A stretch of DNA of 64,000 bases from Bacteroidia bacterium (GTDB lineage Bacteria; Bacteroidota; Bacteroidia; UKL13-3): assembly GCA_018058135.1 (NCBI GenBank), contig JAGPCK010000011.1, forward strand, positions 6 through 64,005. The letters run 5' to 3'. This document shows, piece after piece, positions 3,073 to 19,224 of this stretch. Under the pieces are notes generated by a model, which was not told where the DNA came from, did no database searches, and worked only from the letters and a program-made list of their open reading frames with translations. The position numbers and the translations under genes were made by a program. Numbering within the stretch: the first letter of the stretch is position 1; the number at the start of each line of letters is the position of its first letter.

Positions 3073-3086
3073 TTGACTTTGGTCAA
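3073..3086. promoter_or_regulatory. FNR-type operator TTGAC-N4-GTCAA (site 1)
   Basis: TTGACTTTGGTCAA has perfect 5-bp arms and lies in the divergent mbnP/nadA gap. Confidence 0.75.
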
Positions 3087-3137: not shown

Positions 3138-4103
3138 ATGCCGCAAGCAGATGTGAAGATGAAGTACAACCGCATTCAGCAGTTGAAAAAAGAAAAAGAT
3201 GTAACCTTACTGGCCCACTACTATATGCCTGCCGAGTTGCAATGTAAAACCACACAAGGGGGCATTGCTGATTATGTGGGTGATTCACTCGGTTTAAGTG
3301 TAGAAGCACAAAACACCCCCGCCCGCAATATTTTATTTTGTGGTGTACGTTTTATGGCCGAAACAGCTTTGGTTATTAACCCCGGTAAAAATGTTTTTAT
3401 GCCCGATGTATCCGCAGGCTGTTCACTGGCTTCCAGTATCTCTGCTCAGGATGTACGTGATTTAAAAAAGCAATATCCCGGAGTGCCGGTAATGGGCTAC
3501 ATCAATACGTATGCAGAAACGAAAACCGAACTGGACATTTGCTGTACTTCCAGAAATGCAGTAGCCATTGCTTCATCGCTGGAGGGCGACCGGCTTATTT
3601 TTGTTCCCGATTTGTACATGGGGCAAAATTTGAAACGCGTAATTGAAAAACAATGCGGCAAAGAACTTATTCTTTGGAAAGGTACCTGTGAAGTGCATGA
3701 GCAGTTTAACAACGCTATGGTAGAAGTGGAAGATGGTGATACAGAAATTCTGATGCACTGGGAGGTGCCGGGTGATACCGTGAACACGCAGCTGTCGAAA
3801 CGCAAAGGCATAGTAGGCAGCACGGGAGATATTCTGCAGTATGTTCAACAAAGTAAGGCCACCAAATTTCTGCTTGCTTCAGAATGTGATTTAGGAGTGG
3901 CACTGAAAGAAATGAATGCCGGTAAGGAATTTATTACCCCCTGCATTAAGTGTGCATACATGAAACAAAATACACTGGAAAAAGTACTGCAGGCACTGGA
4001 AGCAATAGGTACAACAGAAGAAGCTAACTACCGCATTACGCTGGATGAGGAGGTATTGCAGAAAGCGCGTAAGCCCGTGTTGCGGATGTTAAATTATAAC
4101 TAA
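3138..4103 (+). CDS. nadA: Quinolinate synthase A
   Basis: LLAHYY, GDSLGLS, FCGVRFMAE, and three [4Fe-4S] Cys (AGCSLA, GTCEVH, CAYMK). Alternative start at ATG 3159. Confidence 0.95.
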   Translation: MPQADVKMKYNRIQQLKKEKDVTLLAHYYMPAELQCKTTQGGIADYVGDSLGLSVEAQNTPARNILFCGVRFMAETALVINPGKNVFMPDVSAGCSLASSISAQDVRDLKKQYPGVPVMGYINTYAETKTELDICCTSRNAVAIASSLEGDRLIFVPDLYMGQNLKRVIEKQCGKELILWKGTCEVHEQFNNAMVEVEDGDTEILMHWEVPGDTVNTQLSKRKGIVGSTGDILQYVQQSKATKFLLASECDLGVALKEMNAGKEFITPCIKCAYMKQNTLEKVLQALEAIGTTEEANYRITLDEEVLQKARKPVLRMLNYN

Positions 4104-4109
4104 GCAAGA

Positions 4110-5639
4110 TTGAAATATTCGAAACGCATCATTTGTGCAGGCAACGGATTGGCTGCATTAAATCTGGCCCTGCACCTGGCCGATGATACCGAGTTACTCA
4201 TTCTGGCTGCTGCTGATTTTTCAGCAAGTAACAGTTACCTGGCCAAAGGAGGTATTGCCATTCCGCTGCAGGAGGAAGATTCCGAACGCCATATACAAGA
4301 TACGTTAATAGCAGGTGATGGCTTGTGTGATGAAGCTGTAGTAAGGGAACTGATTCACGAAGCTCCGGCTGTGGTAAACATGCTCCGGCATTTCGGTTTA
4401 AATTTTGATTCGAGCCTTTCCCGTGAAGGCGGACACAGTTGTGCACGTATTCACCATGTAGCCGATGAAACCGGACGGCACGTAGTAAAAGCATTGTATC
4501 AATACGTAGTACGTAAAAAGAACGTTAAAATTCTCACCGCTCATCACCTGTTGAGTTTGTACATGGATAAAGGTGTTTGTGCAGGTGCCGTTGCCGGAGA
4601 CTCCGTTACACAAAAAGTAAAGTTGATTACAGCCGATGCCGTAGTGCTGGCTACTGGTGGTTGCGGTAATCTGTATCACTACCACACCAATGCCCCTTTT
4701 GCCAACGGAGAGGGTTATGCCATGGCTGAGCGGGCAGGTGCGCGTTTGGCTGATATGGAGTTTGTACAGTTTCATCCCACGCGTTTGTATGACCCGTTGT
4801 TGCAACATCACTTATTGATTACGGAAGCTTTTCGCGGGGCAGGTGCGGTATTGCGCGACCACACCATGCGCGATCTGATGGCAGGTGTACACCCGTTGGG
4901 TAGTCTGGCTCCTCGCGATGTGGTGAGCCGGAGTATGCACACCTGCATGAAGGAATCGGGACATGATTTTCTGTGGCTCGATTTTTCCAAAGTGGATATG
5001 GAACTAATGCAAAGTGATTTTCCCGCATTGTTTAGTATGTGTACACAAAAGGGATTTATGAAAAATAAACGCATACCGGTAACACCTGCTGCGCATTACA
5101 TGTGCGGAGGAGTTGTGACCGATACGTTCGGGGCTACCACCGTTCCGGGATTATATGCAGTTGGTGAAGTGGCCCGCACCGGTTTGCATGGAGCCAACCG
5201 CTTAGCCAGTAATTCCCTGATGGAGCTGTTGGTTATATCCAAACGACTGGCTGAGCGCCTGAATGAAACAGGTACGGTAAACAAACACAAAACGGTTGAA
5301 CTGCCAACCACAGCTGAGCACCCTCATGCGGTTTATGCTGACCCTGTTTTACGTAAAGTGAAACGCATTATGTGGGACTATTTTGGTATAGTCAGAAATG
5401 CAGTATCCATGCAACACGGTTTAGAGGAATTGTATCAACTGGAAGCCTGTTTGCCACCATTGTCGCACACGGCAGATATTACACTGCAACAAACCCATCA
5501 TGCCGTTCATGCAGCTACGTTGATTGCCCGCAGTGCAGTGGTGCGTAAAGAAAGCAAAGGATGTCATTGCCGGGAAGATTTTTCAGTAACGCACGGCACT
5601 TCAGTAAAAGAACAGGAGAATCTGATAGATATCAGTTAA
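4110..5639 (+). CDS. nadB: L-aspartate oxidase
   Basis: EGGHS, QFHPT, LAPRDVV, HYMCGG and GLHGANRLASNSL motifs; 6 bp downstream of nadA. Confidence 0.93.
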   Translation: MKYSKRIICAGNGLAALNLALHLADDTELLILAAADFSASNSYLAKGGIAIPLQEEDSERHIQDTLIAGDGLCDEAVVRELIHEAPAVVNMLRHFGLNFDSSLSREGGHSCARIHHVADETGRHVVKALYQYVVRKKNVKILTAHHLLSLYMDKGVCAGAVAGDSVTQKVKLITADAVVLATGGCGNLYHYHTNAPFANGEGYAMAERAGARLADMEFVQFHPTRLYDPLLQHHLLITEAFRGAGAVLRDHTMRDLMAGVHPLGSLAPRDVVSRSMHTCMKESGHDFLWLDFSKVDMELMQSDFPALFSMCTQKGFMKNKRIPVTPAAHYMCGGVVTDTFGATTVPGLYAVGEVARTGLHGANRLASNSLMELLVISKRLAERLNETGTVNKHKTVELPTTAEHPHAVYADPVLRKVKRIMWDYFGIVRNAVSMQHGLEELYQLEACLPPLSHTADITLQQTHHAVHAATLIARSAVVRKESKGCHCREDFSVTHGTSVKEQENLIDIS

Positions 5640-5644: not shown

Positions 5645-6058
5645 TCAGCGATTCTCCCATTCCGCATAACAGGACTCTGTTTCGTAAAGACGAAGGCGCA
5701 TAAGAGCAATGTGCTGAGGTAAAAGCGGTTTTATTTTTTCTACCATGTAGCTCAGTAAATACTCGGCAGTTGGCTCACCATCAATCCAACAGATTTTGTT
5801 CACCAGGTTTTTGGTAGCAGAGAGATTGATGGTATTGCGTTTAAGCAGCAAGGAGTGGTCAAAGTCTTTGAGAATGCTGCTCTCTACAATTTTTTTCAAA
5901 TCCTTAAAATCGAAAAGAATATTGTTTTCATTAAAATTGGTGCCGGTTACGGTGACGTGTAGTTTGTAGCCGTGGCCATGTATTTCCCTGCATGAGCCGT
6001 TGTAGCCTGAAATAGCATGAGCCGCTTCAAACTGAAATATTTTTGTAACGCTAATCAT
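5645..6058 (-). CDS. queD: 6-carboxytetrahydropterin synthase (QueD/PTPS family)
   Basis: FEAAH, CxxxHGH, DFxDLK, DH, PTAE and LYET motifs. Confidence 0.9.
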   Translation of the reverse strand: MISVTKIFQFEAAHAISGYNGSCREIHGHGYKLHVTVTGTNFNENNILFDFKDLKKIVESSILKDFDHSLLLKRNTINLSATKNLVNKICWIDGEPTAEYLLSYMVEKIKPLLPQHIALMRLRLYETESCYAEWENR

Positions 6059-7232
6059 CGGAATATTGTCTACGTTTCATTTCTTTTTTGAGCATGTCGA
6101 GTTCGCGGTTCATTTGTCCGTTTACGGAGGTGTTTTCTTCAGCCCTGCGCATCAGGTAAGGGATGGCTTTTTCTACCTCGCCATAGGGCAAATATTTGGA
6201 AGCATGGTACCCATGAGCCGCCAGATTAAACGTGATGTGGTCGCTCATACCGTACAACTGTGAGAATTGCAATTTCTCCATCGGGTTGGTAACGTTGTAA
6301 CTCTTCAGGCAGTCAATGGCATATTGAACGCTTTCTTCATTGTGAGAAGCAATACAGGTAACCACCACATCATGATTTTGAAGACAAATTTCCGTGGCGG
6401 TGTTAAATGATTTATCTGTATCCGATTTTTTTTCAAACACCGGATTGGGTAAGCCAACCTCCGCAGCATGTCGGGTTTCTTTTTCCAGATAAGCTCCACG
6501 TACCAGTTTAATGCCGCATAAATACTTGTATTGTCGTGCCCGTGCAATGGCTGCTTGTAAATACGCTACTCTGTCGGTGCGGTACATTTGCAGGGTGTTG
6601 AATACAATTACCTTTTCGTGGTTAAATTGTTTCATCATTTGTTCGGTTAAGGAATCAATCACCTCCTGCATCCAGGTTTCTTCCGCATCAATGTACACCA
6701 TAATATTTTTTTCAGCAGCAGCACGGCAAATATCTTCAACGTGTTTTCTAAAACGGTTGTATCGGTTTTGTTGTGTCCCGCTCAGTTGATTGTGGGTGTG
6801 ATTAATTTGTGTGAGAAAATCAGGGTCTTCCAATCCTGTAAGTTTTACACTGATAAAATCTGCTTTTGTTCCGTTGACCTCAGCGTTGATGTTTGCAATT
6901 ATTTTTTCAGCATTGCGGCTGAAAGCTTCTTCACTTTTTTCGCCTTCCGATACATAGTCTAAAACAGCCATTACATTGTAATCGTGCAGGTGACGTATGG
7001 TTTGAAATGCTTCGGCTTCATTTTCTCCCGAGCAAAAAACCTTAAATACAGTAGAGCGGATAATTCCTTTGAAAGGCAGGTTGTATTGAAGAATCAGTTT
7101 GGCTGCATACGAGAGTATTTTTACCAACCAGGGGTAATGAAGCAAGGTAAACACCAGTTGGGTGAAACGTATTTCTTTATCCGTTTTGTGGGCATAAGCG
7201 GTTTTAAGTTCATTAAATGATAGCGTACTCAT
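6051..7232 (-). CDS. Monofunctional proline dehydrogenase
   Basis: IDAEE, NTLQMYR, KLVRGAY, ASHN, QLYGM and YLMRRAEEN motifs. Confidence 0.92.
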   Translation of the reverse strand: MSTLSFNELKTAYAHKTDKEIRFTQLVFTLLHYPWLVKILSYAAKLILQYNLPFKGIIRSTVFKVFCSGENEAEAFQTIRHLHDYNVMAVLDYVSEGEKSEEAFSRNAEKIIANINAEVNGTKADFISVKLTGLEDPDFLTQINHTHNQLSGTQQNRYNRFRKHVEDICRAAAEKNIMVYIDAEETWMQEVIDSLTEQMMKQFNHEKVIVFNTLQMYRTDRVAYLQAAIARARQYKYLCGIKLVRGAYLEKETRHAAEVGLPNPVFEKKSDTDKSFNTATEICLQNHDVVVTCIASHNEESVQYAIDCLKSYNVTNPMEKLQFSQLYGMSDHITFNLAAHGYHASKYLPYGEVEKAIPYLMRRAEENTSVNGQMNRELDMLKKEMKRRQYSDD

Positions 7233-7233
7233 G

Positions 7234-8634
7234 TTATGCGAATTTTATCTCAGTGGATGTTTTTTCTTTTTTACGTGTTACCTGTTTGCGTTGTTTAATG
7301 TTGCAGGTAACGTAATTGCGCAGCAGCACAATAGCTAGTATGCCTAAGGTGATCATCAGTACAACACCTGAATACACAAAAAGCAGGAACCAGTTACTCA
7401 GTCCGCTCATCATAGTGCTGAAGGAAGTGGTAGTATTCCCCATTTGCCACAGTCCTTTTTCTATACCGGCTGCGTTAAGGGAGAACCAGAAAATAAACAA
7501 AGCTACTTGTGTGCCCCAAAAAGAAATGTTCAGCCATTTTTTATTTGCTTCAGCGGGATAGCAACCGGTGTTTAGGAATTCAAAACAAGCGGCCAGCAAT
7601 ATCATGGTGTTGATGCCGATGGTTGTTCCCATAGCATGAGCAACGGTAACGTGAGTACCGTGTGTATACAGATTAAGAGCAGGTACGGACATGATAATGG
7701 CCTGTCCCATGTTGATGAATACCCACAGTTCAGAAGCCATTAAAAAACGATACGGGAAGTAGTGGTAGTGCTTTTGCATGCTACTTATACTTTGTTTCCA
7801 GGTGTAAATGATGCGAGCAAAGAATATCCATTCCGTCATACTTACGGCATAACCTACATAACGTACATATGCATCGGTAGGAAGGGTGTAAACGTGGTGC
7901 CCCCAGTTAAACATGAGGTTAAACAATCCCAGAAAATACATGGCAAAAGAGAGTTTGCTGTAAGCCATTTTTTTATCCCCGCTTATTTTTTCCATCAGGA
8001 ATATAGCAGTGCCGTAAAGCAGTTGGTTCCATGAACCTACCAGCGAACCATTGGCTTTCCATTGAATGGTCATGTCGGTTACAAAGTGTTCGCGGAAGTA
8101 AGGAAATAACCAGAGATAGTTTTCGATAAAGGTGAAAAGGAAAAATACCAAACCGGTCATCCACATCCATAAGTATACGGGCCATTGCCGGATGGTTTTT
8201 GCCACTTTGATAAAGTTGATTATAAACATCAGCCAGGATATAGCAATAGGCAACGCAGGCCAAGGATTAAACTCCCAGTATTCTCTGCCGCCAAAATTGC
8301 TGTGCAGGTAATTGTAAAAAATCCAAACGATGGCAATTATCCATAAGGCCAGTTGTACTACAGCGATTCTGGCTGAAAGCAGGTGTCCGTATTTATGCCA
8401 CAACCCGCTGTACACGCAACCTGTTGCACCCAGTATAATCCAGAACAAAACGGAGGAAACGTGCATGGGGCGCAGCGCAGAAAAACCCACAGCAGAGTTC
8501 TTCCACAAGTCGGGATAGAGGTAACTGTGTGCTGCGGTTACACCTAAGCCTAATCCCAGCAATAGCATCAGCAGTGCCAACGCCAAAAATGTTTTAGCTA
8601 CAGGTTGAATAGTGTTAGTCATTTTGTTGTTCAA
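7234..8634 (-). CDS. Heme-copper oxidoreductase large subunit, NorB-like with non-canonical ligands (nNOR-like)
   Basis: About 12 hydrophobic segments; RPMH (H58), GREY, WGHH (H246/H247) and HGTHVTVAH (H333). The canonical HLWVEG aligns with NGSLVG and the canonical HxH with HAM. Confidence 0.8.
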   Translation of the reverse strand: MNNKMTNTIQPVAKTFLALALLMLLLGLGLGVTAAHSYLYPDLWKNSAVGFSALRPMHVSSVLFWIILGATGCVYSGLWHKYGHLLSARIAVVQLALWIIAIVWIFYNYLHSNFGGREYWEFNPWPALPIAISWLMFIINFIKVAKTIRQWPVYLWMWMTGLVFFLFTFIENYLWLFPYFREHFVTDMTIQWKANGSLVGSWNQLLYGTAIFLMEKISGDKKMAYSKLSFAMYFLGLFNLMFNWGHHVYTLPTDAYVRYVGYAVSMTEWIFFARIIYTWKQSISSMQKHYHYFPYRFLMASELWVFINMGQAIIMSVPALNLYTHGTHVTVAHAMGTTIGINTMILLAACFEFLNTGCYPAEANKKWLNISFWGTQVALFIFWFSLNAAGIEKGLWQMGNTTTSFSTMMSGLSNWFLLFVYSGVVLMITLGILAIVLLRNYVTCNIKQRKQVTRKKEKTSTEIKFA

Positions 8635-9034
8635 TCATTCCGTTCCACAATGTTTTGTAGGATGTGGGTCGTCCGTTTCCGGTAGCATCTGCTGCCCTTA
8701 GAAATGCCAGCAGCCGGGTAAGTTCTTCATCGGTTAAATCGAACACGGGCATTTGTTTGTTACCGCTTTTGAGTAAGGCATGAATGTAAGTGCTGTCTTT
8801 ACCGGGTGACGACATCAGGTTAGTTAAATCGGGTCCCAGATAGCCACCTAATCCATAGAGCTGGTGGCAACTCTGGCAGTTGTATTTTTGCCATACCAAA
8901 CGGCCTTCTCCGGCTTGTGAATTTGCAAGTTGCAATTCAGTTGTATGGCGTAACGGAGCAGTATAAATAGAGAAAGAATAGGCCAGAAAAAGCACACACA
9001 AAACAACAAAAATATGTCGCGGATGAATTTTCAT
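8615..9034 (-). CDS. NorC-like membrane-anchored monoheme cytochrome c
   Basis: N-terminal TM helix; GRLVWQKYNCQSCHQLYGLGGYLGPDLT matches the NorC pattern; Met in KQMP; overlaps the NorB-like gene. Confidence 0.85.
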   Translation of the reverse strand: MKIHPRHIFVVLCVLFLAYSFSIYTAPLRHTTELQLANSQAGEGRLVWQKYNCQSCHQLYGLGGYLGPDLTNLMSSPGKDSTYIHALLKSGNKQMPVFDLTDEELTRLLAFLRAADATGNGRPTSYKTLWNGMIEQQND

Positions 9035-10416
9035 AATTGCTCGAAACGTGCCTGAAAGAATCTTAAATATTTAGGTTCGTAGACCATTTTTAAGCCTTTG
9101 ATTTTGTCTCTGCGCTCCAACACAGCAGCAGCTGATTCGGCAATTACATCCATGTGTGCCTGTGTATATACCCTGCGCGGAATGGTGAAACGTACCAACT
9201 CCAGTTTAGGATAATAATTTTCTCCGTTGGCTTTTCTTCCGGCTGAAACAATGCCACGTTCCATGGTGCGCACACCTGAGTCAATATAAATTTCAGCAGC
9301 CAGTGTTTGTGCAGGAAACTGGTCTTGGGTAAGGTGAGGCAAAAATGCTTTTGCGTCTACAAATATGCCATGTCCGCCAATTGGCTTCACAATAGGGATA
9401 CCGTATTCTTCCATTCGATGCCCCAGGTATTCTACCTGACCTACACGTGCCTTCTGGTGATGGTCGTCAACACTTTCACCAATGCCCACTGCAATAGCTT
9501 CCATGTCTCTTCCTGCCAATCCGCCATAAGTATGCAAGCCTTCATATACTACTACCATATTGCGTGCTTCTTCATACACGTCCCATTCATTGGTGGCCAT
9601 AAATCCGCCAATGTTTACCAGGGCATCTTTTTTGGCACTCATGGTAGCACCGTCAGTGAGTGAACAAATTTCCTTCACAATCTCTTTCACTGATTTTGTG
9701 CTGTAACCTTTTTCGCGCTGTTGAATGAAGTACGCATTTTCAGCTACACGGGTCATGTCGTGTATAATACGTATACCGTGTTTTTTGGTATAGGCTCTCA
9801 GCTCTTTCAGATTTTTGATGCTGATAGGCTGTCCGCCTGCCATGTTTACATTGGTGGCAATGCTCACATACGGAATTTTTTCAGCTCCGTATTTTTTTGC
9901 CAGAGCTTCGAGTTTATTCAGGTCAACGTTACCTTTAAAAGGATGTTCGTTGAGCGGGTCATGTGCCTCATCAATGATAATATCGTGGAATTTTCCTCCG
10001 GCCAATTCCTGGTGCAGACGGGTAGTAGTGAAATACATGTTTCCCGGAACGATGTCTCCTTTTTTGATGAGAATCTTTGACAGAATGTTTTCAGCACCAC
10101 GACCCTGGTGTGTGGGGATGATGTATTTGTAACCGTAATACTTCTGAATAGCGGCCTCCATTTTATAGTAGCTGCTGCTGCCCGCATAGGCTTCGTCACC
10201 TAACATAAAGGCACTCCATTGGCGGTCACTCATGGCATTGGTTCCGCTATCGGTTAGCAGATCAATGTATACATCTTCTGAACGAAGTAAAAAGGTGTTG
10301 TATCCTGCTTCTTTCAGGGCCTTTACCCGTTGGGTACGTGTGGTCATTTTGAGCAGTTCAATCATTTTCATTCTGTAGGGCTCGGCCCATGAACGTTTGA
10401 TCAGTTGTTTTTTCAT
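9031..10416 (-). CDS. tpl: Tyrosine phenol-lyase
   Basis: DLLTDSGT and PLP Lys motif MSAKKD, with TPL-type specificity motifs GNMYFTTT and LRFF. Confidence 0.9.
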   Translation of the reverse strand: MKKQLIKRSWAEPYRMKMIELLKMTTRTQRVKALKEAGYNTFLLRSEDVYIDLLTDSGTNAMSDRQWSAFMLGDEAYAGSSSYYKMEAAIQKYYGYKYIIPTHQGRGAENILSKILIKKGDIVPGNMYFTTTRLHQELAGGKFHDIIIDEAHDPLNEHPFKGNVDLNKLEALAKKYGAEKIPYVSIATNVNMAGGQPISIKNLKELRAYTKKHGIRIIHDMTRVAENAYFIQQREKGYSTKSVKEIVKEICSLTDGATMSAKKDALVNIGGFMATNEWDVYEEARNMVVVYEGLHTYGGLAGRDMEAIAVGIGESVDDHHQKARVGQVEYLGHRMEEYGIPIVKPIGGHGIFVDAKAFLPHLTQDQFPAQTLAAEIYIDSGVRTMERGIVSAGRKANGENYYPKLELVRFTIPRRVYTQAHMDVIAESAAAVLERRDKIKGLKMVYEPKYLRFFQARFEQL

Positions 10417-10433
10417 TTTTAGTGGGATTAATT

Positions 10434-10886
10434 TTACTCCTCAACAGTTTTAGCAGCCAGTTGAATATTTATTTTTAAAGAAGTGGTTGATTTAATAGAG
10501 TTGGAAATGAGGCAGGCTTTTTCGGCTTTCACCAGTATACGTTCTGCCTTTTCTCTGTCTTCTTCATTGCTCACCGTGAGGGTAGGTTCCAACTCTACGT
10601 GTGTCATGGCGTATCTGCCATCGGCTTTGGTCAGTATGCCTCTCGATTTACATTCAAAATCGATGTACTCAAATTTAGAAAACTCGGCAACAGCCAAAAA
10701 AGTTGTCATGAAACAGCTATTCACTGCTGCGGTAAACAAGTGTTCAGGCGACCATATTCCGTGCATGCCTCCGTTGAATTCAGGTGGTGTAGCAACAGTA
10801 ATGTGTTCATTTATTCCAGGAGCTTTCATGGTTCCTTTTTTTAGTTCCAGCCAGTTGATGCTTACTTCATATTCGTGTGATTCCAT
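10434..10886 (-). CDS. OsmC/Ohr-family protein
   Basis: SPEHLF..AVNSCF and AEKACLISNS supply the two conserved Cys. Confidence 0.9.
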   Translation of the reverse strand: MESHEYEVSINWLELKKGTMKAPGINEHITVATPPEFNGGMHGIWSPEHLFTAAVNSCFMTTFLAVAEFSKFEYIDFECKSRGILTKADGRYAMTHVELEPTLTVSNEEDREKAERILVKAEKACLISNSIKSTTSLKINIQLAAKTVEE

Positions 10887-10897
10887 GTGTAGGTAAA

Positions 10898-12283
10898 TTA
10901 TATTTTTTCAAATTTGGCAGTGAAGTGTCTTAAGAAAGGTGGTTCATAGGTTATGCGGTAACCGTGCTGTTGTTGGCACATGTCTAGAATGTCGTCAAAT
11001 ACATCCAGTACATAATCAATGTGGCTTTGTGTGTATACTCTTCTGGGAATAGCTAAACGTACCAGTTCATTTTTGGCCGGCACCAGTTTACCGTCTTTAT
11101 CGTAATGCCCGAACATTACACTGCCCACTTCCACACAGCGGATGCCGCCTTTGATGTACAGGTCGCACACCAAAGCCTGTCCCGGATATTCTTCCACAGA
11201 TATGGCCGGGTACAATTTTTTAGCATCAATGTAAACGGCATGTCCGCCAATGGGCCACACTACCGGAATACCTTTGGCTTTGAGGTGTTCACCCAGATAA
11301 GCGGTGCTTCGAATGCGGTAGTGCAGGTAATCGGCATCAAACACTTCTTTTAGTCCGATGGCAAGCGCTTCCATGTCTCTGCCCGATAAACCACCGTAGG
11401 TAGAAAAGCCTTCAGAGATAATGAGTAGGTTGGTACATTTGCGGGCCATCTCTTCATCGCGCAGGGTAAGCAATCCACCCATGTTTACGAGTCCGTCTTT
11501 TTTTGCGCTCATCACAAAAGCATCACCCAAACGCAACATTTCTTTGGCAATTTCTTCGTAGGTTTTGTTTTCATAGCCTTGCTCACGGTGTTGTACAAAG
11601 TAACTGTTCTCTGCAATACGACAGCCGTCTATCACCAGGAGCAATCCGTGTTCGTTACATATTTTGCGCAGGCCTTTTACATTGGCCATGCTCACCGGTT
11701 GGCCACCTGAGGAGTTGTTGGTAACGGTAATAATTACTGCGGCAATTTTTTCTTTACCGTACTCTTTGATGAGTTCCTGTAGTTTATCTAAGTCGATGTT
11801 TCCTTTAAAAGGTAAATCAGCCTGCGGGTCCAGTGCTTCTTCAGGCAGAATATCAATGGCTGTTGCTCCTGTAAATTCTATGTTGGCTCGTGTAGTATCA
11901 AAGTGTGTATTGCTGATGAATATTTTATCGGGTCCGCCCAATAGGCCATACAAGATGCGCTCTGCTGCACGGCCCTGGTGGGTGGGTAAAATGTAAGGCA
12001 TGCCGGTAAGTTCTTTTACCACACTTTCCAAGTGCACCCAACTTCTGGCACCGGCATAACTTTCATCTCCCATCATAATGCCACTCCATTGTTTGTCACT
12101 CATGGCACCGGTTCCGCTATCCGTGAGCAGGTCAATAAATACATCATCAGAGCGTAAAAGAAACGGATTGTTTCCTGCTTTTTCCAGAGCAGTTTTGCGG
12201 TATTCTTCTGTAGTAATTTTGAGCGGCTCCACCATTTTTATTTTAAACGGCTCCGCCAGCGTACGTAATCTGTTATTCTCCAT
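10898..12283 (-). CDS. tnaA: Tryptophanase (tryptophan indole-lyase)
   Basis: DLLTDSGT and MSAKKD, with tryptophanase-type motifs SNTHFDTT and LRHFT. Confidence 0.88.
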   Translation of the reverse strand: MENNRLRTLAEPFKIKMVEPLKITTEEYRKTALEKAGNNPFLLRSDDVFIDLLTDSGTGAMSDKQWSGIMMGDESYAGARSWVHLESVVKELTGMPYILPTHQGRAAERILYGLLGGPDKIFISNTHFDTTRANIEFTGATAIDILPEEALDPQADLPFKGNIDLDKLQELIKEYGKEKIAAVIITVTNNSSGGQPVSMANVKGLRKICNEHGLLLVIDGCRIAENSYFVQHREQGYENKTYEEIAKEMLRLGDAFVMSAKKDGLVNMGGLLTLRDEEMARKCTNLLIISEGFSTYGGLSGRDMEALAIGLKEVFDADYLHYRIRSTAYLGEHLKAKGIPVVWPIGGHAVYIDAKKLYPAISVEEYPGQALVCDLYIKGGIRCVEVGSVMFGHYDKDGKLVPAKNELVRLAIPRRVYTQSHIDYVLDVFDDILDMCQQQHGYRITYEPPFLRHFTAKFEKI

Positions 12284-13151
12284 TCGTTGTATAGTTGATT
12301 GTATTCAAATAATTTTTAAGTGATTCTTCCCACTGCGGCATCAGGTTAACACCTCTGCGTTTAAGAAGTGAATTTTCTAATACGGAATATTTGGGACGGG
12401 CAATTTTTGCAGGGAAATCCAATGAGTTGGCACTGTGTAATTTTACATCAGTATTGCTGTTGCGGAAAATGGCATCAGCAAATTCATACCAACTGCATTG
12501 TCCTTCAGAGGTCATGTGTGTAATTCCCTGCACATCGCTCGACAATAAGCGGGTTAACTGATTAGCCACATCAGCTGTAGCCGTGGGGGAAACAAATTCA
12601 TCATTTACCACCCGTACTTCCCCTTTTTCACGTGCGAGTTTCAGCATCAACTGAATGAAGTTTAGTCCGTTTTTTGCCCTGCACGGATGTGTGCCGTATA
12701 AAGCAGATACCCGGGCAATCATGTAATCACCTCCTTCTGCTTCAATCTTTTTTTCACCCATCAGTTTTGATAGACCGTAAACGTTTAACGGAGTGGCATT
12801 ATCTGATTCAGCATACGGTTTGTTTTGTTTACCGTCAAAAACATAATCGGTGCTGATGTGAATGAATCGTGCACTTCTGTACCGACACATGCGTGCCATA
12901 AACCCTGGTGCATCAGTATTGATTCGTTTGGCCATGGCCATATCCTTTTCGCAGGCATCTACATTGTGGAATGCTGCGGTATTAATAACTACCTGAGGTT
13001 GCACGCGCATAATCTGATTTTTTACTTCCATCAGATTGCCGATATCCAAGTCTTCGTGAGTTAAGCCGATTACGTCCTGACCGGCATTGGCCATGGAGGC
13101 TACAATATCAGCACCCAGTTGGCCATTTGCTCCTGTTACTAATATTTTCAT
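12273..13151 (-). CDS. rmlD: dTDP-4-dehydrorhamnose reductase
   Basis: GANGQLG, HISTDYVFDG, YGLSK (YxxxK) and RPKYSVL motifs. Confidence 0.92.
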   Translation of the reverse strand: MKILVTGANGQLGADIVASMANAGQDVIGLTHEDLDIGNLMEVKNQIMRVQPQVVINTAAFHNVDACEKDMAMAKRINTDAPGFMARMCRYRSARFIHISTDYVFDGKQNKPYAESDNATPLNVYGLSKLMGEKKIEAEGGDYMIARVSALYGTHPCRAKNGLNFIQLMLKLAREKGEVRVVNDEFVSPTATADVANQLTRLLSSDVQGITHMTSEGQCSWYEFADAIFRNSNTDVKLHSANSLDFPAKIARPKYSVLENSLLKRRGVNLMPQWEESLKNYLNTINYTTNGE

Positions 13152-14137
13152 GCGGTGAGAGTAAGGGAGTCAGACAACATTATTTTTTGGAATACATTGA
13201 TGTTGTAGTATTTTTCATCATCAAAGTTGCGGAATAAATCCACATGCTCATGTAGGTCACTGAGAATATCCAAATCATTTTGTAGAGGATTAAAGTTTAA
13301 GAGTTGTTTTGCTTTATCTGTACTTACCTTGTAGTTGCGGTAATCTTGTTTTTCCAGGTTTTTCACTGATATGTCGATGCCATATTTTTCTTTGATGAAG
13401 CTTACTACAGACAAAGCCAGCTCTCCGATGGTAGCGTTGAAGGAGCTGATGTTGAAAATGTGTCCACCGTTCAGCATGGCTTCAATGCCGTTGTGGTAAG
13501 CCACACACAAATCATTTAATCCCAAAACAGGCCGCCATATTTTATTGTTGCTGAGTGTGATTTCTCCTTTTTGAAGGGCGTTTTTGAACATGGTATTCAT
13601 GGCCAGATCTAACCGCATTCTGGGGCTGTATCCGCTCACAGTTCCTTGTCGGAAGCAGAGGACGGAAAAATTTTCATCGGCTATAGCCAGCAATGTTTGT
13701 TCACCCTGTAGTTTAGATACACCATAAGGATAGTTGCTCACTGCAATATCCTGTTCAGTAAATGTTCTGTTGTGTGTGTAGCCGTATACAGAGCAGGAAC
13801 TGGCAAACAGCATACGTTTTACTTCGGCATCTTTGGCAATGTAACCGATGTAGGCTGGCAGAGCAGTATTGTAAATGAAATTGGCTTTCGGGGAAAACTC
13901 CGCCATCGGGTCATTGGATAAGCCGGCCAGAAAAATGATGGCATCATAAGGAGCTACATCCTCCGGTTGCAGGTTAAAAATATCCATTTGCTTCACCGGA
14001 ATATCATCGGGCAAACTGTTGCCGAACCAGCACAGGTCAACCACATCAATATCGTATCCTGCTCTTTTAAGGTAAGGACATAATACACTGCCGATATATC
14101 CGCAGCCGCCCAGTACCAATATTTTTTTCTTGCTCAT
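13148..14137 (-). CDS. NAD-dependent nucleotide-sugar epimerase/dehydratase (extended SDR)
   Basis: GGCGYIG, ASSCSVYG and YGVSK motifs. Confidence 0.88.
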   Translation of the reverse strand: MSKKKILVLGGCGYIGSVLCPYLKRAGYDIDVVDLCWFGNSLPDDIPVKQMDIFNLQPEDVAPYDAIIFLAGLSNDPMAEFSPKANFIYNTALPAYIGYIAKDAEVKRMLFASSCSVYGYTHNRTFTEQDIAVSNYPYGVSKLQGEQTLLAIADENFSVLCFRQGTVSGYSPRMRLDLAMNTMFKNALQKGEITLSNNKIWRPVLGLNDLCVAYHNGIEAMLNGGHIFNISSFNATIGELALSVVSFIKEKYGIDISVKNLEKQDYRNYKVSTDKAKQLLNFNPLQNDLDILSDLHEHVDLFRNFDDEKYYNINVFQKIMLSDSLTLTA

Positions 14138-14145
14138 GGTGTTGT

Positions 14146-14709
14146 TTATTTAATCAAATTTGATGCAGGTGTGTTTAACCATTGGGCCAATGTTAGAGCG
14201 GTTGAATCTTTTGCCGAGAGCACAGGTGTAATGTCGGGCCACTCAATGCCCACCTCCGGATCGTTCCATAAAATACCTGATTCAGCTTTGTTGCTGTATA
14301 TGCCGGTACACTTGTACTGTATTTCGGCAAAGTCGCTGGTTACACAAAACCCACGTGCAAATCCGGCAGGCGCCCAAACCATTTTTTTATTTTTAGCTGA
14401 TACGTATTCTCCGTACCACTGCCCCAATGATGGAGAGTTTTTGCGAATGTCAACAGCAACCAGAAAAGCTTCTCCCACTGTAACGCGCATCAGTTTGCCC
14501 ATAGGAGGTTCCCATTGAAAATGTAACCCACGCACCACACCATACGAGGAGCGGGAGTGATTGTCCTGCACAAATTCATCTGTTATGCCCAATGTTTGGA
14601 ATTGATCTTTACGGTATACTTCAGTGAAGAAGCCTCGATCGTCTTCGAATACTTCAGGTTGTAACACCATCAGTCCGTTTAATGCTTCGTTAATCAGTTG
14701 AATATTCAT
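14146..14709 (-). CDS. rmlC: dTDP-4-dehydrorhamnose 3,5-epimerase
   Basis: FEDDRGFF, QDNHSRS, RGLHFQ and VDIR motifs. Confidence 0.93.
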   Translation of the reverse strand: MNIQLINEALNGLMVLQPEVFEDDRGFFTEVYRKDQFQTLGITDEFVQDNHSRSSYGVVRGLHFQWEPPMGKLMRVTVGEAFLVAVDIRKNSPSLGQWYGEYVSAKNKKMVWAPAGFARGFCVTSDFAEIQYKCTGIYSNKAESGILWNDPEVGIEWPDITPVLSAKDSTALTLAQWLNTPASNLIK

Positions 14710-15751
14710 AAGGAGTATAGTTTTTTAATTGAGTGCAGGTCTTTCTTTTTTTGCCGAAGTATTCCCACACGATGCTGCCATTGTACAGAAAACGTTTTAC
14801 TTCGTTATCAGTAACCGTACGCATACGTTGCACCGATTTTCTTTTACGTAGAATAAGAAGAGGATTTAACAGTAACCACGCATGGGCCTTCAGTATTCCG
14901 CCAACGGTCGTGAAGTCGCGCTGGAGCAGTGATTGTGCGATAACAATATAATCGAGCAGAAAGTGAACCGGTACATATCGCAATACGTTTTTGCATTCGT
15001 AGTTCTTGAGCATAATGTATAAGGAGTTGCGGTGGTTCCAGTATACCTTCCTGAAACTTTTTGTTTGAATGGTGGCACCTCCTATGTGATGAATAACAGA
15101 AAGCGGTTGTACCACCGTTTTGAAACCACACATTCTCATGCGCCAACACAGGTCTATTTCATCCATGTGGTGAACGATGGTTTCGTCCAGTGTGTCGGTT
15201 ACCTCCAATGCTTCTTTGCGAATGAACATGGCTGCCCCGCTGGTCCAGAAGATTTCGCTTACATCATCGTATTGTCCGTTGTCCTCTTCTATGGTGTTGA
15301 ACAACCTGCCACGTAGAAAGGGGTAGCCGAAAACATCCATCATGCCACCTGATGCACCGGCATATTCAAATTTTTTGTTATCAAAGTAGGAAACAATTTT
15401 GGGTTGAATGGCCGCAATTTTTTCATCCGACTCGGCCAGTTGTACCAGGTGTTCTATCCACTGCGGATGTACGGTTACATCATTGTTGAGGCAGATAAAG
15501 TATTTTCCTTTGCCTGCGGAGAAACCTAAATTGTAGGCTGCACAATATCCGTTATTCAGTTTGTTCTGAATAATATTGATTTGCGGGTAGTGTTGTTTGA
15601 GCCAGCTTACGTCATCATCTGTTGATGCGTTGTCGAGTACGTGTATCTTTTTGTTGGGATAGCTGCAGTTGATAACAGAATCAAGGCATTCTTTCAGGAA
15701 TTTTTTGCCATTGTAATTCAGTATCACCACATCTGTTTCCGGGTACTCCAT
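14690..15751 (-). CDS. Glycosyltransferase family 2 (WbbL-like, possible rhamnosyltransferase)
   Basis: VILNYNG, DNAS, CLNND, SGAAMFIR and EIDLCWR motifs. Confidence 0.88.
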   Translation of the reverse strand: MEYPETDVVILNYNGKKFLKECLDSVINCSYPNKKIHVLDNASTDDDVSWLKQHYPQINIIQNKLNNGYCAAYNLGFSAGKGKYFICLNNDVTVHPQWIEHLVQLAESDEKIAAIQPKIVSYFDNKKFEYAGASGGMMDVFGYPFLRGRLFNTIEEDNGQYDDVSEIFWTSGAAMFIRKEALEVTDTLDETIVHHMDEIDLCWRMRMCGFKTVVQPLSVIHHIGGATIQTKSFRKVYWNHRNSLYIMLKNYECKNVLRYVPVHFLLDYIVIAQSLLQRDFTTVGGILKAHAWLLLNPLLILRKRKSVQRMRTVTDNEVKRFLYNGSIVWEYFGKKRKTCTQLKNYTPYEYSTD

Positions 15752-15801
15752 AACGCTCGTTTTTGATTCTTCGAAATACGGGCGGGAGCAACGTTGAAAA
15801 G

Positions 15802-15815
15802 TTGACCTTAGTCAA
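15802..15815. promoter_or_regulatory. FNR-type operator TTGAC-N4-GTCAA (site 2), upstream of the 11-gene operon
   Basis: TTGACCTTAGTCAA lies 50 bp upstream of the GT2 start. A variant, ATGATATTGGTCAC, follows at 15824-15837. Confidence 0.75.
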
Positions 15816-15836: not shown

Positions 15837-16544
15837 CTAATCTTCAGTAGAAGACAGTTCGAGCAACTTGTTTTTGTTAAGAATGCGAATTTGTTTTTTA
15901 ATGAGTTGGATGAGTCCTTCTTCATCCCACTGATGTAGTGTGCGCACAGTGGTTTCCACCGCTATGCCGGTTATTCCGGCAATTTCTTCGCGGGTAAGGT
16001 GTATATTAATATAGCCTTCTTCTGTTTTGCCAAAGGATTGTTCCAGCAGAAGTAAGGTTTCAGCCAATCGCTCTTTGCTTGATTTTTGTAACAGGTTAAG
16101 TGCCCTGGTTTCAGCGTCACTGGTGTCGGCTGCAATCTTTGACATGATGTCGAGCGTAAAGTTTACGTTATGGGTAATAAACTCCAGAATTTTTTCTTTG
16201 GGAATAAAACAGATGATACTGTCTTCCATAGTTTCAGCAGTGGCAATGTAACGCCCGTTGCCCAATAAACCCCTGTAGCCTATCAGATCAGCTGATTTGG
16301 CTAAACGCACAATTTGTGTGCTTCCGTCATTCAGTGTTTTGTATAGTTTTACTTTCCCATCGTGTACACAATGCAATCCTTTTACTATATCGCCTTCGTG
16401 AAAGAGAATGTGCTTTTTCTTTACCTGAAAAGTGGTTTTGTGCTGATTGAGTGACTCCAGTTCATTCATGCGCAGGTTGCAAAAAGCTGAGGTGGCTTTG
16501 TGCTGGCAGCTGATGCAATCAATGGTATGGACTGTTTTTTTCAC
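15837..16544 (-). CDS. fnr: FNR-type Crp/Fnr regulator with N-terminal Cys cluster
   Basis: CISCQHKATSAFC plus an internal Cys (DSIICFIP), cNMP-binding fold and HTH (LTREEIA..ETTVR). Probable GTG start at 16544; the ORF track extends to 16667. Confidence 0.85.
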   Translation of the reverse strand: MKKTVHTIDCISCQHKATSAFCNLRMNELESLNQHKTTFQVKKKHILFHEGDIVKGLHCVHDGKVKLYKTLNDGSTQIVRLAKSADLIGYRGLLGNGRYIATAETMEDSIICFIPKEKILEFITHNVNFTLDIMSKIAADTSDAETRALNLLQKSSKERLAETLLLLEQSFGKTEEGYINIHLTREEIAGITGIAVETTVRTLHQWDEEGLIQLIKKQIRILNKNKLLELSSTED

Positions 16545-16653
16545 CGGAGTTACTTTGGTGCAAATATGTATAAATAAAGCCAAATATCTTTTTTCATTTT
16601 TATGATGCGGGTGATAAGCTGCATGGTGCCGGGAAATTTTTTGACAAAAAACA

Positions 16654-16667
16654 TTGACGCAGGTCAA
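16654..16667. promoter_or_regulatory. FNR-type operator TTGAC-N4-GTCAA (site 3)
   Basis: TTGACGCAGGTCAA lies in the divergent gap between fnr and the ~604-aa gene. Confidence 0.75.
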
Positions 16668-16737: not shown

Positions 16738-18552
16738 ATGCACCACACTTTTCATATCCCTGTTTTGGGTTTAGCTTACTCCGTTGATACGCCTGTTAAA
16801 GTGGCCCGTTTCGGAATTTCATCTGTAGTTTCAGTTATTCAGCATGAGTTACTGGAGCAGATGCGCAAATTTCACAGCAGTCAATACAACCTTCCTTATA
16901 TGGAGATTACCGCCAAAGAGATTGATTTCAGAGCAAAGCGGGTAAAAGCCTATTTGAATATGTTGCAGGAGATTGTGAGCTTGCAACTCAATAAACTTAG
17001 AGCTGAAGCGTTTGAGGCCGATACGGATATTACCAACTACTTTAAAATGTTACCGGAGAAAAGTACCCTGAAAAAAATGTACTGCGACATGACTACTGCT
17101 GTGGGGGAGATGAAAGAAAACTTGTGTGAGAAGCTGAGGCAACAAATTACTGCCGGTAGTATTGATGTGAACATCATGACCAAAGTTGATAACCTGAATT
17201 ACGCTGCTGACGGGGAAACACTGCTGGCTCCTGAGTACTCGGATGCGTTATCTGCCTTACGTGGTTTTGCACAAAGTAATCTGGAGAGTTCGGTAGTTTT
17301 TTCAGCCGGTCTAAACCCCAAGCTTTACAGTTATATTGATACCTTTCCTGATTTTTTTCCTGATGAAAACGGACACCTGAAAAAGAAAATTATTCTTAAG
17401 GTGAGTGACTACCGCTCTGCATTAATTCAGGGTAAATTTCTGGCTAAAAAAGGAGTATGGATTTCTGAGTTCCGTATTGAATCAGGACTTAATTGCGGAG
17501 GACACGCTTTCGCCACTGATGGCTATTTACTTGGCCCCATTTTGCAGGAGTTTAAAGATAAACGGGAAGAGCTAAATGCAGAGTTGAAACAAACCGTAAA
17601 TGCTGCCTTAGCTGCAAAAAATCAGCCCTTGTTGCCATCAGCAATTCATGCACGTGTTACTGTTCAAGGTGGTATAGGCACAGGAGCTGAGGACGAATTT
17701 TTACGAGATTTTTACGGGGTAGATGCTACCGGATGGGGTAGTCCGTTCTTATTGGTGCCTGAAGCTACCAATGTAGATAATGATACGCTTCAGGGTTTAG
17801 CCACTGCACAACCTGATGATTATTACCTGAGCCATGCCTCTCCGTTGGGAGTACCATTTAACAATTTCAGAAAAAGCTCAGCGCAAAAATTACGTAATGA
17901 ACGCATGGAAAAAGGTCGTCCGGGTAGCCCGTGTTATAAAAAGCACCTCACCTTTAATAAAGAGTTTACAGCAGCACCTATATGTGAGGCATCACGGCAG
18001 TATCAGCACCTCAAGTTGCAGCAGCTGGTCGGTGAGGGGTTAACACCTGAAGCATTTAAAAAGCGAGTAGAGGAGATAACAGAAAAAGATTGCCTGTGTG
18101 AAGGACTTTCAGCAACCGCATTGCTCAAGAATAATATACCTGTGCCCCGTAACCTTACCGCAGTAACTATTTGCCCGGGCCCTAATCTGGCTTTCTTTTC
18201 CGGTGTGTTTACACTGGCTGATATGGTGGGGCATATTTACGGAAGAAAAAATTTGCTCAATCAGGTTTATCGCCCTCACATGTTTGTTAATGAACTGAAG
18301 ATATACATCAACTACCTGCAAACGGAAATTCAAAAAAGTTTACCGGAGCCTTCAGAGAAGCAGAAAAAATACTTCAAAAGTTTTTATGATAACCTGCAGC
18401 AGGGTATAGCATATTACCGCAGCATCATAACTCAGGCGGCACAGGATACGAAAGAAACATACCACACTTGGGTAAAAGATGTGGGTGAAGCCGAAGCCTC
18501 ACTGTTGCTCATCTTTGCAACCAGTGAAGGTGATACCTCTGTTTTGGTGTAG
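16738..18552 (+). CDS. Hypothetical protein, possibly a nitronate-monooxygenase/FabK-like FMN enzyme with extra Cys
   Basis: Long ORF (ATG 16738; track TTG 16723) containing ESGLNCGGH, VQGGIG, GWGSPFL, CLCEGL and ICPGPN. Confidence 0.6.
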   Translation: MHHTFHIPVLGLAYSVDTPVKVARFGISSVVSVIQHELLEQMRKFHSSQYNLPYMEITAKEIDFRAKRVKAYLNMLQEIVSLQLNKLRAEAFEADTDITNYFKMLPEKSTLKKMYCDMTTAVGEMKENLCEKLRQQITAGSIDVNIMTKVDNLNYAADGETLLAPEYSDALSALRGFAQSNLESSVVFSAGLNPKLYSYIDTFPDFFPDENGHLKKKIILKVSDYRSALIQGKFLAKKGVWISEFRIESGLNCGGHAFATDGYLLGPILQEFKDKREELNAELKQTVNAALAAKNQPLLPSAIHARVTVQGGIGTGAEDEFLRDFYGVDATGWGSPFLLVPEATNVDNDTLQGLATAQPDDYYLSHASPLGVPFNNFRKSSAQKLRNERMEKGRPGSPCYKKHLTFNKEFTAAPICEASRQYQHLKLQQLVGEGLTPEAFKKRVEEITEKDCLCEGLSATALLKNNIPVPRNLTAVTICPGPNLAFFSGVFTLADMVGHIYGRKNLLNQVYRPHMFVNELKIYINYLQTEIQKSLPEPSEKQKKYFKSFYDNLQQGIAYYRSIITQAAQDTKETYHTWVKDVGEAEASLLLIFATSEGDTSVLV

Positions 18553-19204: not shown

Positions 19205-19224
19205 ACCATTAAATACTTAACACT

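Follow-up and report, generated by a model that had tools for sequence, protein, structure and literature searches.

A widespread accessory gene island of Bacteroidota that brings aromatic amino acid lyases together with a haem-copper protein derived from NO reductase, probably under Crp/Fnr-type control

Background

Why would a bacterium pack enzymes for the breakdown of tyrosine, tryptophan and proline into one cluster with a haem-copper protein and a set of sugar genes? The question is raised by eleven genes in a stretch of 64,000 nucleotides from a Bacteroidia bacterium (assembly GCA_018058135.1, contig JAGPCK010000011.1), which is referred to here, at its full length, as the window. We consider it probable (about 0.6) that this cluster is one lineage's version of a widespread Bacteroidota accessory island, and that the island is a Crp/Fnr-controlled survival kit for anoxia and nitrogen oxides. 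Regulators of the Crp/Fnr type would probably induce it under anoxic conditions in which nitrogen oxides are available.

Open reading frames (ORFs) were identified by profile searches with Pfam and NCBIfam, by sequence matches in the PDB and, for the model of one 604-residue protein, by a fold search of the PDB. Residues of the haem-copper subunit I (HCO) were read from PDB alignments (4xyd and 3o0r) and from alignments of 14 and 128 family members. Gene order was compared in 91 loci, of which 11 come from relatives and 80 from Bacteroidota species genomes; all counts out of 80 refer to the latter. Loci carry L numbers, genomes G numbers and contigs C numbers. The host family is represented by 25 genomes (G000-G024) and a wider related set by 41. 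The source assembly (3.02 Mb) is 84% complete, and its congeners are 99% complete.

The eleven-gene cluster

The cluster consists of eleven ORFs (5645-15751), all on the minus strand, and every gene call was upheld. In the order of transcription these are:

14690..15751, minus strand: GT2, a family-2 glycosyltransferase, the first gene (PF00535, E 8.5e-28; weak match to TIGR01556, a rhamnosyltransferase subfamily)
14146..14709, minus strand: RmlC, dTDP-4-dehydrorhamnose 3,5-epimerase (TIGR01221, 225.8 bits, above cut-off)
13148..14137, minus strand: sugar-nucleotide epimerase/dehydratase of the short-chain dehydrogenase/reductase (SDR) type, specificity unassigned (PF01370)
12273..13151, minus strand: RmlD, dTDP-4-dehydrorhamnose reductase (TIGR01214, 291 bits, above cut-off)
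10898..12283, minus strand: TnaA, tryptophanase (tryptophan indole-lyase) of a divergent type (PRK13238, 675 bits)
10434..10886, minus strand: OsmC/Ohr-family thiol peroxidase-like protein, whose gene is a lineage-specific insert in the cluster (PF02566)
9031..10416, minus strand: tyrosine phenol-lyase (TPL; TIGR02618, 735 bits against a cut-off of 720.7)
8615..9034, minus strand: NorC-like membrane-anchored monohaem cytochrome c, 139 residues (PF13442 and PF00034; weak NorB_cytochrome_c-like match)
7234..8634, minus strand: HCO, derived from the NO reductase family cNOR, 466 residues (PF00115, E 4e-27)
6051..7232, minus strand: monofunctional proline dehydrogenase (ProDH; PF01619, E 1.4e-73)
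5645..6058, minus strand: QueD-type (COG0720) 6-carboxy-tetrahydropterin synthase-like protein, an island-specific extra copy (PF01242; CREIHGH, a CxxxHGH motif)

An earlier sequence-only reading had described eleven genes packed on one strand with overlaps of 4-20 bp and gaps of 1-17 bp. The ORF coordinates bear this out, and the names it gave to the genes are each supported by the profile searches. Overlaps are found at GT2/rmlC (20 bp), SDR/rmlD (4 bp), rmlD/tnaA (11 bp), tpl/cytochrome c (4 bp, ATGA), cytochrome c/HCO (20 bp) and proDH/queD (8 bp), and gaps at rmlC/SDR (8 bp), tnaA/osmC (11 bp), osmC/tpl (17 bp) and HCO/proDH (1 bp). A single strand with junctions of no more than 17 bp is compatible with one transcript, and the layout is likewise compatible with co-transcription of all eleven genes from a promoter that carries a Crp/Fnr-type box (see below). 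A scan for internal promoters and terminators gave no signals above shuffled sequences; it used a sigma-70 consensus, which is not that of Bacteroidota promoters.

Two of the genes encode lyases of the same general type. The TPL product passes its equivalog cut-off, scores 612 bits against a solved TPL and retains Arg100, Thr124 and Phe448/449 in the alignment to 9j3u, so that both family score and specificity residues identify it as a TPL. The tnaA product scores about equally against solved tryptophanases and TPLs, its best PDB match being the tryptophanase 8sij. It falls below the cut-offs of the equivalog models TIGR02617 and NF053783 and is therefore placed in a divergent TnaA lineage. 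At the positions of TPL Thr124 and Phe448, the sites that distinguish TPL from TnaA in the E. coli and P. vulgaris enzymes, it carries Asp (HFDTTR) and His (LRHFTA). We accept it as a divergent tryptophanase for this reason. It is 78-83% identical in many related loci. TPL is 83-89% identical over loci whose HCO sequences share only 55-63% identity.

The cytochrome c has a CQSCH haem site and an N-terminal hydrophobic helix, and the start of its gene overlaps the tpl stop. The sugar genes do not form a complete RmlABCD set for dTDP-L-rhamnose: RmlC and RmlD pass their cut-offs, and RmlA and RmlB were not found in the cluster. The SDR protein reaches no NCBIfam equivalog at its cut-off and is not RmlB (24.5 bits against 365 for that model). 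Among PDB entries it matches 6vo6 best (E 2.6e-23), itself a putative sugar-nucleotide epimerase/dehydratase. Five of the cluster genes are second copies in this genome: GT2 (38% identical paralogue on contig C102), rmlC (paralogue on C99), rmlD (on C18), proDH (41% identical, on C95) and the queD-type gene. Those for TPL and TnaA are single, as are nadA and nadB, which lie beside the cluster.

The haem-copper protein

The only solved structures to which the HCO has sequence matches are the NorB subunits of cNOR (4xyd, E 2.3e-11; 3o0r, E 5e-8), and it is 20-23% identical to true NorB. Like cNOR (NorCB; P. aeruginosa 3O0R, R. denitrificans 4XYD), the window has a gene for a membrane-anchored monohaem cytochrome c followed by one for a 12-helix subunit I of about 460 residues. 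Residues retained (with the cNOR equivalent) are H58 (His60, haem b), H246 and H247 (His258/259, metal site), H333 (His347, haem b3), E118 and E121 (Glu135/138) and E268 (Glu280). The periplasmic Glu pair is thus present, within GGREYWEF, where E118 and E121 are invariant and which aligns to GREFLE of NorB, together with an upstream partner of the NorC type.

Unlike cNOR, the HCO has lost several ligands. The FeB ligand His207 is replaced by Asn (N195), a change seen in 125 of the 128 sequences, the FeB ligand Glu211 by Val (V199), Glu215 by Asn (N203) and the haem b ligand His349 by Met (M335), the last in 128/128. Two of the six canonical histidines (His207 and His349) have therefore gone and, among the glutamates Glu211, Glu215 and Glu280, the equivalent of Glu280 alone remains. 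His328 and Lys193 are new invariant residues over the 128 homologues. No invariant His occurs in these between residues 59 and 245, so the loss of the first metal ligand does not depend on the details of the alignment. Neither does the protein have the three CuB histidines and cross-linked Tyr of an oxygen reductase: with the first metal His missing, a His-Tyr cross-link cannot form, and the ccoN model gives 24.7 bits against a cut-off of 583.

The HCO is clearly derived from cNOR; judged by these residues, it is neither a cNOR nor an oxygen reductase. In the description 'non-canonical NO reductase' of the sequence-only reading, 'NO reductase' is an analogy only, for a protein that lacks two of six canonical His and two catalytic Glu. 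Its most likely reaction is reduction of NO at a modified site, at odds that we put somewhat below even. In the literature searched we found no biochemical data for any member of the family. Relatives of the HCO occur in at least 595 species genomes and are mislabelled in databases as NorB or cbb3 oxidase, which matters for denitrification inventories.

Gene order in other Bacteroidota

Several genes next to the cluster recur with it in other genomes:

16738..18552, plus strand: 604-residue soluble protein, predicted FMN (flavin mononucleotide) TIM barrel of the FabK/NMO type with a Cys-rich region (fold match)
3138..5639, plus strand: nadA-nadB, quinolinate synthase and L-aspartate oxidase, an O2-independent route to NAD (PF02445; TIGR00551, 475 bits, above cut-off)
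1241..3038, minus strand: MbnP-like and MbnH-like pair, the latter of the di-haem MauG family (PF20243; PF03150 and TIGR04039)
18646..25009, plus strand: TATGAY-N4-RTCATA box, cytochrome c gene, clade II (Sec) nosZ and nosL-D-F-Y (TIGR04246, 931 bits; NosL, NosD and ABC components)

The cytochrome c-HCO pair is constant (80/80 loci). A tpl gene lies within 10 kb of it in 41 loci. It is immediately upstream of the cytochrome gene in 24, and in a further 11 (L029, L039, L055, L056, L061, L064, L068, L069, L077, L083 and L086) a single gene for an ADP-forming acyl-CoA synthetase of about 683 residues (CoA_binding_2, Succ_CoA_lig and ATP-grasp_5) lies between the two. No gene for this synthetase was found in the window's genome. 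A tnaA gene is present within 10 kb in 27/80 loci, and proDH (21/80) or a QueD-type gene (17/80) directly follows HCO. The gene for the 604-residue protein (the flavoenzyme, by its predicted fold) occurs in 35/80, with 50-59% identity, and heads the homologous operon in most relatives. The nadA and nadB genes occur in 26-27 loci, in two forms: one upstream on the same strand (about 36% identical) and the other, that of the window, downstream on the opposite strand (62-71% identical). In Flavobacterium proteolyticum 1Y8A (L102), nadAB-cytc-HCO adjoins the nos genes. The conserved unit is [flavoenzyme]-[nadAB]-[tnaA]-tpl-[acs]-cytc-HCO-[proDH]-[queD], where brackets enclose optional genes, cytc is the cytochrome c gene and acs that of the acyl-CoA synthetase. 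In short, the order tnaA/tpl-cytc-HCO-proDH/queD recurs across many Bacteroidota, as conservation of the cluster would lead one to expect; the exact set of eleven genes is specific to one lineage.

This lineage-specific part can be traced. OsmC is confined to the window's species group (L013, L014/L024). The module crp-GT2-rmlC-SDR-rmlD, whole or in part, precedes the core in about 9 of the 91 loci (L020, L025, L039, L055, L064, L071, L077, L078 and L088), and in two of these (L071 and L078) boxes of the TTGAC or TTGAT type lie upstream of GT2. On this evidence from sequence, the sugar module is a real member of an Fnr-box regulon in a sub-clade.

Other genes recur near the pair in relatives without being part of the unit. 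They encode the RIC/ScdA di-iron repair protein (ScdA_N plus hemerythrin; 21/80), a 4HBT thioesterase (13), NrdD (12) and its activase NrdG (9), qNOR (7), an Rrf2 regulator (7), a U32 peptidase (5) and canonical norCB (3, with HLWVEGVWE). The genes for NrdD and NrdG lie downstream of HCO (for example, L029, 14565-17521). In at least 10/80 loci (L040, L050, L057; L026, L066, L093, L096, L098, L101 and L103) the variant pair has canonical norCB or qNOR no more than a few kb away, so both types of enzyme coexist. No norQ- or norD-like gene was seen among the 14 most recurrent unmapped neighbour families, which is not an exhaustive test.

Boxes and regulators

The window contains three perfect copies of one palindrome, two of a second and two regulators of the Crp family:

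15802..15815: box TTGACCTTAGTCAA, a perfect TTGAC-N4-GTCAA palindrome of the Crp/Fnr type, 51 bp upstream of the GT2 start
16654..16667: second perfect TTGAC-N4-GTCAA box, between the regulator gene and the divergent 604-residue protein gene
3073..3086: third perfect TTGAC-N4-GTCAA box, between the MbnP-like gene and nadA
15837..16546, minus strand: Fnr-like Crp-family regulator (cNMP_binding and HTH_Crp_2; best NCBIfam match Fnr, PRK11161)
26292..28154, minus strand: second TATGAY-N4-RTCATA box (26292-26307), a 405-residue protein without family match and a Cys-less Crp-family regulator (27561-28154)

The three TTGAC-N4-GTCAA boxes are all intergenic and compare with 0.12 expected; none of 100 shuffles gave three. 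The whole assembly holds only five perfect copies, three of them in the island, and the regulon therefore looks local. A box is also found at the mbnP/nadA position in L025, L028, L039, L055 and L064. The sequence-only reading had seen a perfect FNR-type box upstream of the cluster. A perfect palindrome is indeed there, but it is TTGAC-N4-GTCAA and not the classical E. coli TTGAT-N4-ATCAA.

A search with that classical FNR consensus gave no perfect sites and a one-mismatch count at chance level. The two boxes outside the island lie on C102 (near 32941) and C46 (near 15478); one is 75 bp from a 161-residue ORF and the other is within a gene.

The earlier placing of the cluster in a Crp/Fnr-type regulon is supported by the adjacent regulator and its conserved Cys motif. 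Translation of this protein probably starts at a GTG at 16546, although the ORF as listed extends to 16667. Its N-terminal C-x2-C-x8-C and two further Cys are kept in most of the homologues compared. By its fold, these Cys and the perfect palindromes it is a candidate for a sensor of the FNR type, which would hold a [4Fe-4S] centre and respond to O2 or NO; the Cys spacing is unlike that of E. coli FNR (C-x2-C-x5-C).

The second palindrome, TATGAY-N4-RTCATA, has two copies in the window against 0.04 expected, with no further copies in the genome. They precede the cytochrome c-nosZ genes and a fasciclin gene. In most relatives the TTGAC box is missing and its place is taken by ATGAY-N4-RTCAT palindromes, of which there are 69 where shuffles give about 10. 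These precede the flavoenzyme-led operon in 19 cases, the fasciclin gene in 20 and cytochrome c-nosZ in 8. The lyase/HCO operon of relatives thus has an operator in common with nosZ. As the boxes indicate, the operon has moved in the window's lineage under a dedicated Cys-containing Fnr-like regulator.

Host genotype and co-distribution

Neither nirK nor nirS was found in the assembly or in its congeners (84% and 99% complete, as above). Any NO must therefore be external. The haem-copper inventory of the assembly comprises an aa3-type oxidase, a cbb3-type oxidase, a fragment and the variant HCO, with no canonical cNOR or qNOR. The variant HCO is present in 13 of the 41 related genomes, and 12 of these 13 have a clade II NosZ. 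This combination of NosZ without nir makes the hosts non-denitrifying N2O reducers. Similar genotypes have been reported: flavobacteria that have clade II nosZ but no nir pass electrons to N2O during transient anoxia (PMC9697520), and nosZ with nor and without nir occurs in many Flavobacteriaceae isolates (PMC13502197).

Within the host family, HCO, TPL above its cut-off and NadA are found in exactly the same 9 of 25 genomes, which belong to four genera. A strong QueD-type homologue occurs in all nine and in one of the 16 others; a weak paralogue is near-universal. The four therefore behave as one accessory island. In the wider set, ten of the 11 TPL genomes also have HCO. Three of the 13 HCO genomes have no true TPL, tpl is unlinked in G035, and in G001, G003 and G005 it is 9-12 kb distant, with the nos cluster in between. 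Kynureninase is present in 38 of the 41 genomes, including that of the window, which makes NadAB an added, O2-independent route to NAD. The default route of the host family is probably the O2-dependent kynurenine pathway, of which kynureninase alone was searched.

Proposed function and alternative explanations

In the scheme that we favour, the Fnr-like Cys-cluster regulator would bind the TTGAC-N4-GTCAA boxes and activate the eleven-gene cluster, its own gene and the divergent flavoenzyme gene, and nadAB/mbnPH; the Cys-less Crp protein would act at the TATGAY-N4-RTCATA boxes of nosZ. TPL and TnaA would then split tyrosine and tryptophan without O2 into pyruvate, NH3 and phenol or indole, and ProDH would pass electrons from proline to the quinone pool. 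In relatives, the acyl-CoA synthetase could make ATP from pyruvate-derived acetyl-CoA; the position of its gene between tpl and the cytochrome gene points to such a gain. Electrons would leave through cytochrome c to the cNOR-derived HCO and clade II NosZ, with external N-oxides as the sinks. NadAB would furnish NAD when the O2-dependent kynurenine route stalls. It is plausible that tryptophan, tyrosine and proline fuel NO/N2O respiration in this way. The sugar module probably serves to alter a surface glycan when oxygen is absent, which is a guess, and the U32 peptidase-family protein of relatives may be an O2-independent hydroxylase, like U32 proteins of the UbiU/UbiV type. All this fits an island that gathers O2-independent functions around N-oxide reductases, repair of NO damage and copper supply.

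The sequence-only reading had proposed an anoxia programme that ties amino acid catabolism to N-oxide reduction. The regulon, the synteny and the anaerobic and NO-related neighbours (NrdDG, acyl-CoA synthetase, RIC, Rrf2 and nosZ) agree with it. It needs correction in that the enzyme is no cNOR, the host makes no NO of its own and the set of eleven genes is lineage-specific. Several points weigh against the survival-kit scheme itself. To assign NO reduction to an HCO without canonical FeB ligands is to extrapolate. The canonical NOR that adjoins the variant pair in at least 10/80 loci suggests that the latter is non-redundant and possibly has a different reaction. A host without nirK and nirS does not generate the NO that it would reduce, and NadA, as an Fe-S enzyme, seems ill suited to NO stress. 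It is not evident where the QueD copy, OsmC and the sugar module would fit in a scheme of energy metabolism, and the tight, widespread tpl-cytochrome c coupling could signify more than co-regulation. The idea that TPL replaces a dioxygenase route for tyrosine found no support: homogentisate dioxygenase gave no matches in the 41 genomes. For NAD, the corresponding idea is supported by the distributions of kynureninase and NadA. Induction by anoxia or NO, like the activity of the HCO, is something we infer from the genes and their boxes.

Other explanations were weighed. The HCO may not be an NO reductase but catalyse another N-oxide reaction, as an N2O reductase (PMC11214002) or as something like the NO dismutase (PMC3413370). 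It is nearest to cNOR and comes from Bacteroidota, as in the argument made for Flexibacter canadensis, its His-to-Asn change and Glu loss parallel the dismutase, and the adjacent canonical cNOR or qNOR runs counter to plain redundancy. We think this unlikely all the same. NosZ is present in 12/13 HCO genomes and often adjacent, which would make a second N2O reductase redundant and an NO reductase complementary. An electron-input cytochrome c subunit and a conserved E118/E121 pair suit a reductase over an electron-neutral dismutase, and the many O2-independent substitutes in the island speak against internal production of O2. Slightly less likely again is that the island serves mainly as a defence against nitrosative stress, in which the HCO detoxifies NO while the pyridoxal phosphate (PLP) lyases, NadAB and others replace NO-sensitive iron and haem enzymes. 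This would account for RIC/ScdA in 21/80 loci, for Rrf2 regulators and qNOR nearby, for the truncated globin gene after nosY and for a host that produces no NO itself. Against this, NrdDG, the ADP-forming acyl-CoA synthetase and the U32 peptidase indicate strict anoxia and not NO alone, NadA itself has an NO-sensitive Fe-S cluster, and a Cys cluster like that of the regulator is typical of O2 sensing, though Fe-S clusters react with NO too.

A further reading, to which we give a slim chance, below that of stress defence, takes the β-lyases and the HCO as one biochemical unit. The coupling to TPL/TnaA would be mechanistic and the HCO a new haem-copper catalytic class that does not simply convert NO to N2O, with phenol or indole as substrate, co-substrate or redox mediator of its 2-His/Asn site or transformed by NO (for example, phenol or indole could be nitrosated or oxidized in an NO-dependent reaction, or diffusible phenol could take the place of the missing His-Tyr cofactor). 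The position of tpl or tnaA immediately upstream of the cytochrome gene in 27/80 loci, the ATGA overlap in the window, the co-occurrence of TPL and HCO (10/11) and an active site that is non-canonical and yet invariant over 128 sequences are what one would expect of it. A strict partnership is hard to reconcile with the 39/80 loci that have the cytochrome c-HCO pair without tpl within 10 kb, with the HCO genomes that lack a true TPL (3/13) or with those in which tpl is unlinked or distant (G035; G001, G003 and G005). The synthetase gene between tpl and the cytochrome gene in 11 loci suits carbon flow over product channelling, and we know of no HCO with such chemistry. As for chance juxtaposition of unrelated genes without common control, the exact eleven-gene set does occur only in the window's own species group, but sub-modules recur in dozens of species with order and orientation kept, co-distribution within the host family is perfect and the boxes are shared and statistically enriched. 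This explanation is very improbable, being already contradicted by synteny and co-distribution.

A natural-product or cofactor biosynthetic cluster (quinolinate, pterin, aromatics and glycosyltransferase) was considered and set aside, the neighbours being NrdDG, RIC, acyl-CoA synthetase and nos genes, with no scaffold-building enzymes seen.

Comparison with known systems

The nearest description of the HCO is in PMC11214002. Murali et al. (2024) there mention an 'N2O red' family, uncharacterised, closely related to cNOR (its sister clade in the C-family branch), without the active-site Tyr and present in hundreds of genomes. They speculate that it accounts for the N2O reductase of Flexibacter canadensis, a member of the Bacteroidota, which is membrane-bound and insensitive to acetylene and sulfide. 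The properties of the HCO agree qualitatively with that description, and the window protein probably belongs to this family. In the abstract and the passages on nNOR, gNOR and N2O reductase there is no mention of a link to TPL, TnaA, ProDH, NadAB or the flavoenzyme. The nNOR, gNOR, eNOR and sNOR types, which the paper derives from B-family oxidases with CuA-type subunit II homologues, were rejected as candidates; the HCO is partnered by a cytochrome c and has sequence matches to cNOR alone. It also differs from cNOR in being tied to nosZ and not to nirK/nirS.

The putative NO dismutase (NOD) of Methylomirabilis oxyfera has one of its FeB-ligating His consistently replaced by Asn and a catalytic Glu lost (PMC3413370), and the HCO likewise shows the change of His to Asn and loss of Glu. 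The two differ in that NOD is qNOR-derived, fused and about 800 residues long, without haem c or a quinol site, whereas the HCO has a separate haem c subunit through which electrons can be supplied. In addition, the His/Met ligand pair of the low-spin haem in the HCO is not reported for NOD.

Anaerobic and denitrification regulons of the Fnr/Dnr type are well known. The island resembles the FNR, DNR and NnrR regulons in having a Cys-cluster Crp/Fnr regulator, 5-4-5 palindromes at N-oxide and anaerobic promoters and two tiers, one Cys-containing and the other Cys-less. It differs in its boxes (TTGAC-N4-GTCAA and TATGAY-N4-RTCATA), in its local extent and in its members (TPL, TnaA, ProDH, the QueD copy and the rhamnose/GT2 genes). 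The tnaCAB operon and the TyrR-controlled tpl of enterobacteria share with it PLP-dependent β-eliminating lyases and their specificity residues. Neither a tnaC leader nor a tnaB permease gene was apparent in the window, and its lyases are tied to a respiratory HCO and a Crp/Fnr box, not to catabolite or tryptophan control.

Significance

The mention in PMC11214002 is probably the only earlier notice of the HCO family, which is uncharacterised. No description of its recurrent association with TPL, TnaA, ProDH, NadAB or the flavoenzyme turned up in the literature search.

Members of the Bacteroidota that have clade II nosZ but no nitrite reductase are regarded as important N2O sinks, and little is known of their diet in anoxia. 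The island suggests one: amino acids, used through O2-independent lyases, with N-oxides as electron sinks. It predicts that environmental Bacteroidota begin to release phenol and indole at the same time as they switch on N2O/NO reduction. It also provides a genomic handle on a large haem-copper family, which matters since denitrification inventories would count the HCO as 'nor'. The presence of NadAB only with the island, in a host family where the kynurenine route is universal, would be a clean case of an accessory O2-independent cofactor pathway. The island thus offers a testable physiology for abundant N2O-consuming Bacteroidota and an entry to haem-copper chemistry.

Flanking genes

The 604-residue protein has no match in Pfam, NCBIfam or PDB sequence searches. 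An AlphaFold2 model (pLDDT 75, pTM 0.78) gave a sole significant PDB fold match, 4cw5 (the DfnA enoyl reductase, E 1.7e-6), and the protein is accordingly predicted, from this model, to be an FMN barrel of the FabK/NMO type. The MbnP/MbnH-like pair, present in 14-15/80 loci, has a probable role in copper acquisition, and this copper would plausibly supply NosZ.

A gene for a truncated (bacterial-like) globin (25038-25409) directly follows nosY, with homologues in 10/80 loci. Beyond the nos genes lie a fasciclin protein gene, two genes without family match and the Cys-less Crp regulator. Two proteins without family match, of 405 and 212 residues, flank this regulator (26344-28831), and relatives have all three in the vicinity of the HCO, with the 212-residue protein in 34/80 loci. 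Further along the window, on the plus strand (39059-50647), are two very large ORFs of 2105 and 1705 residues.

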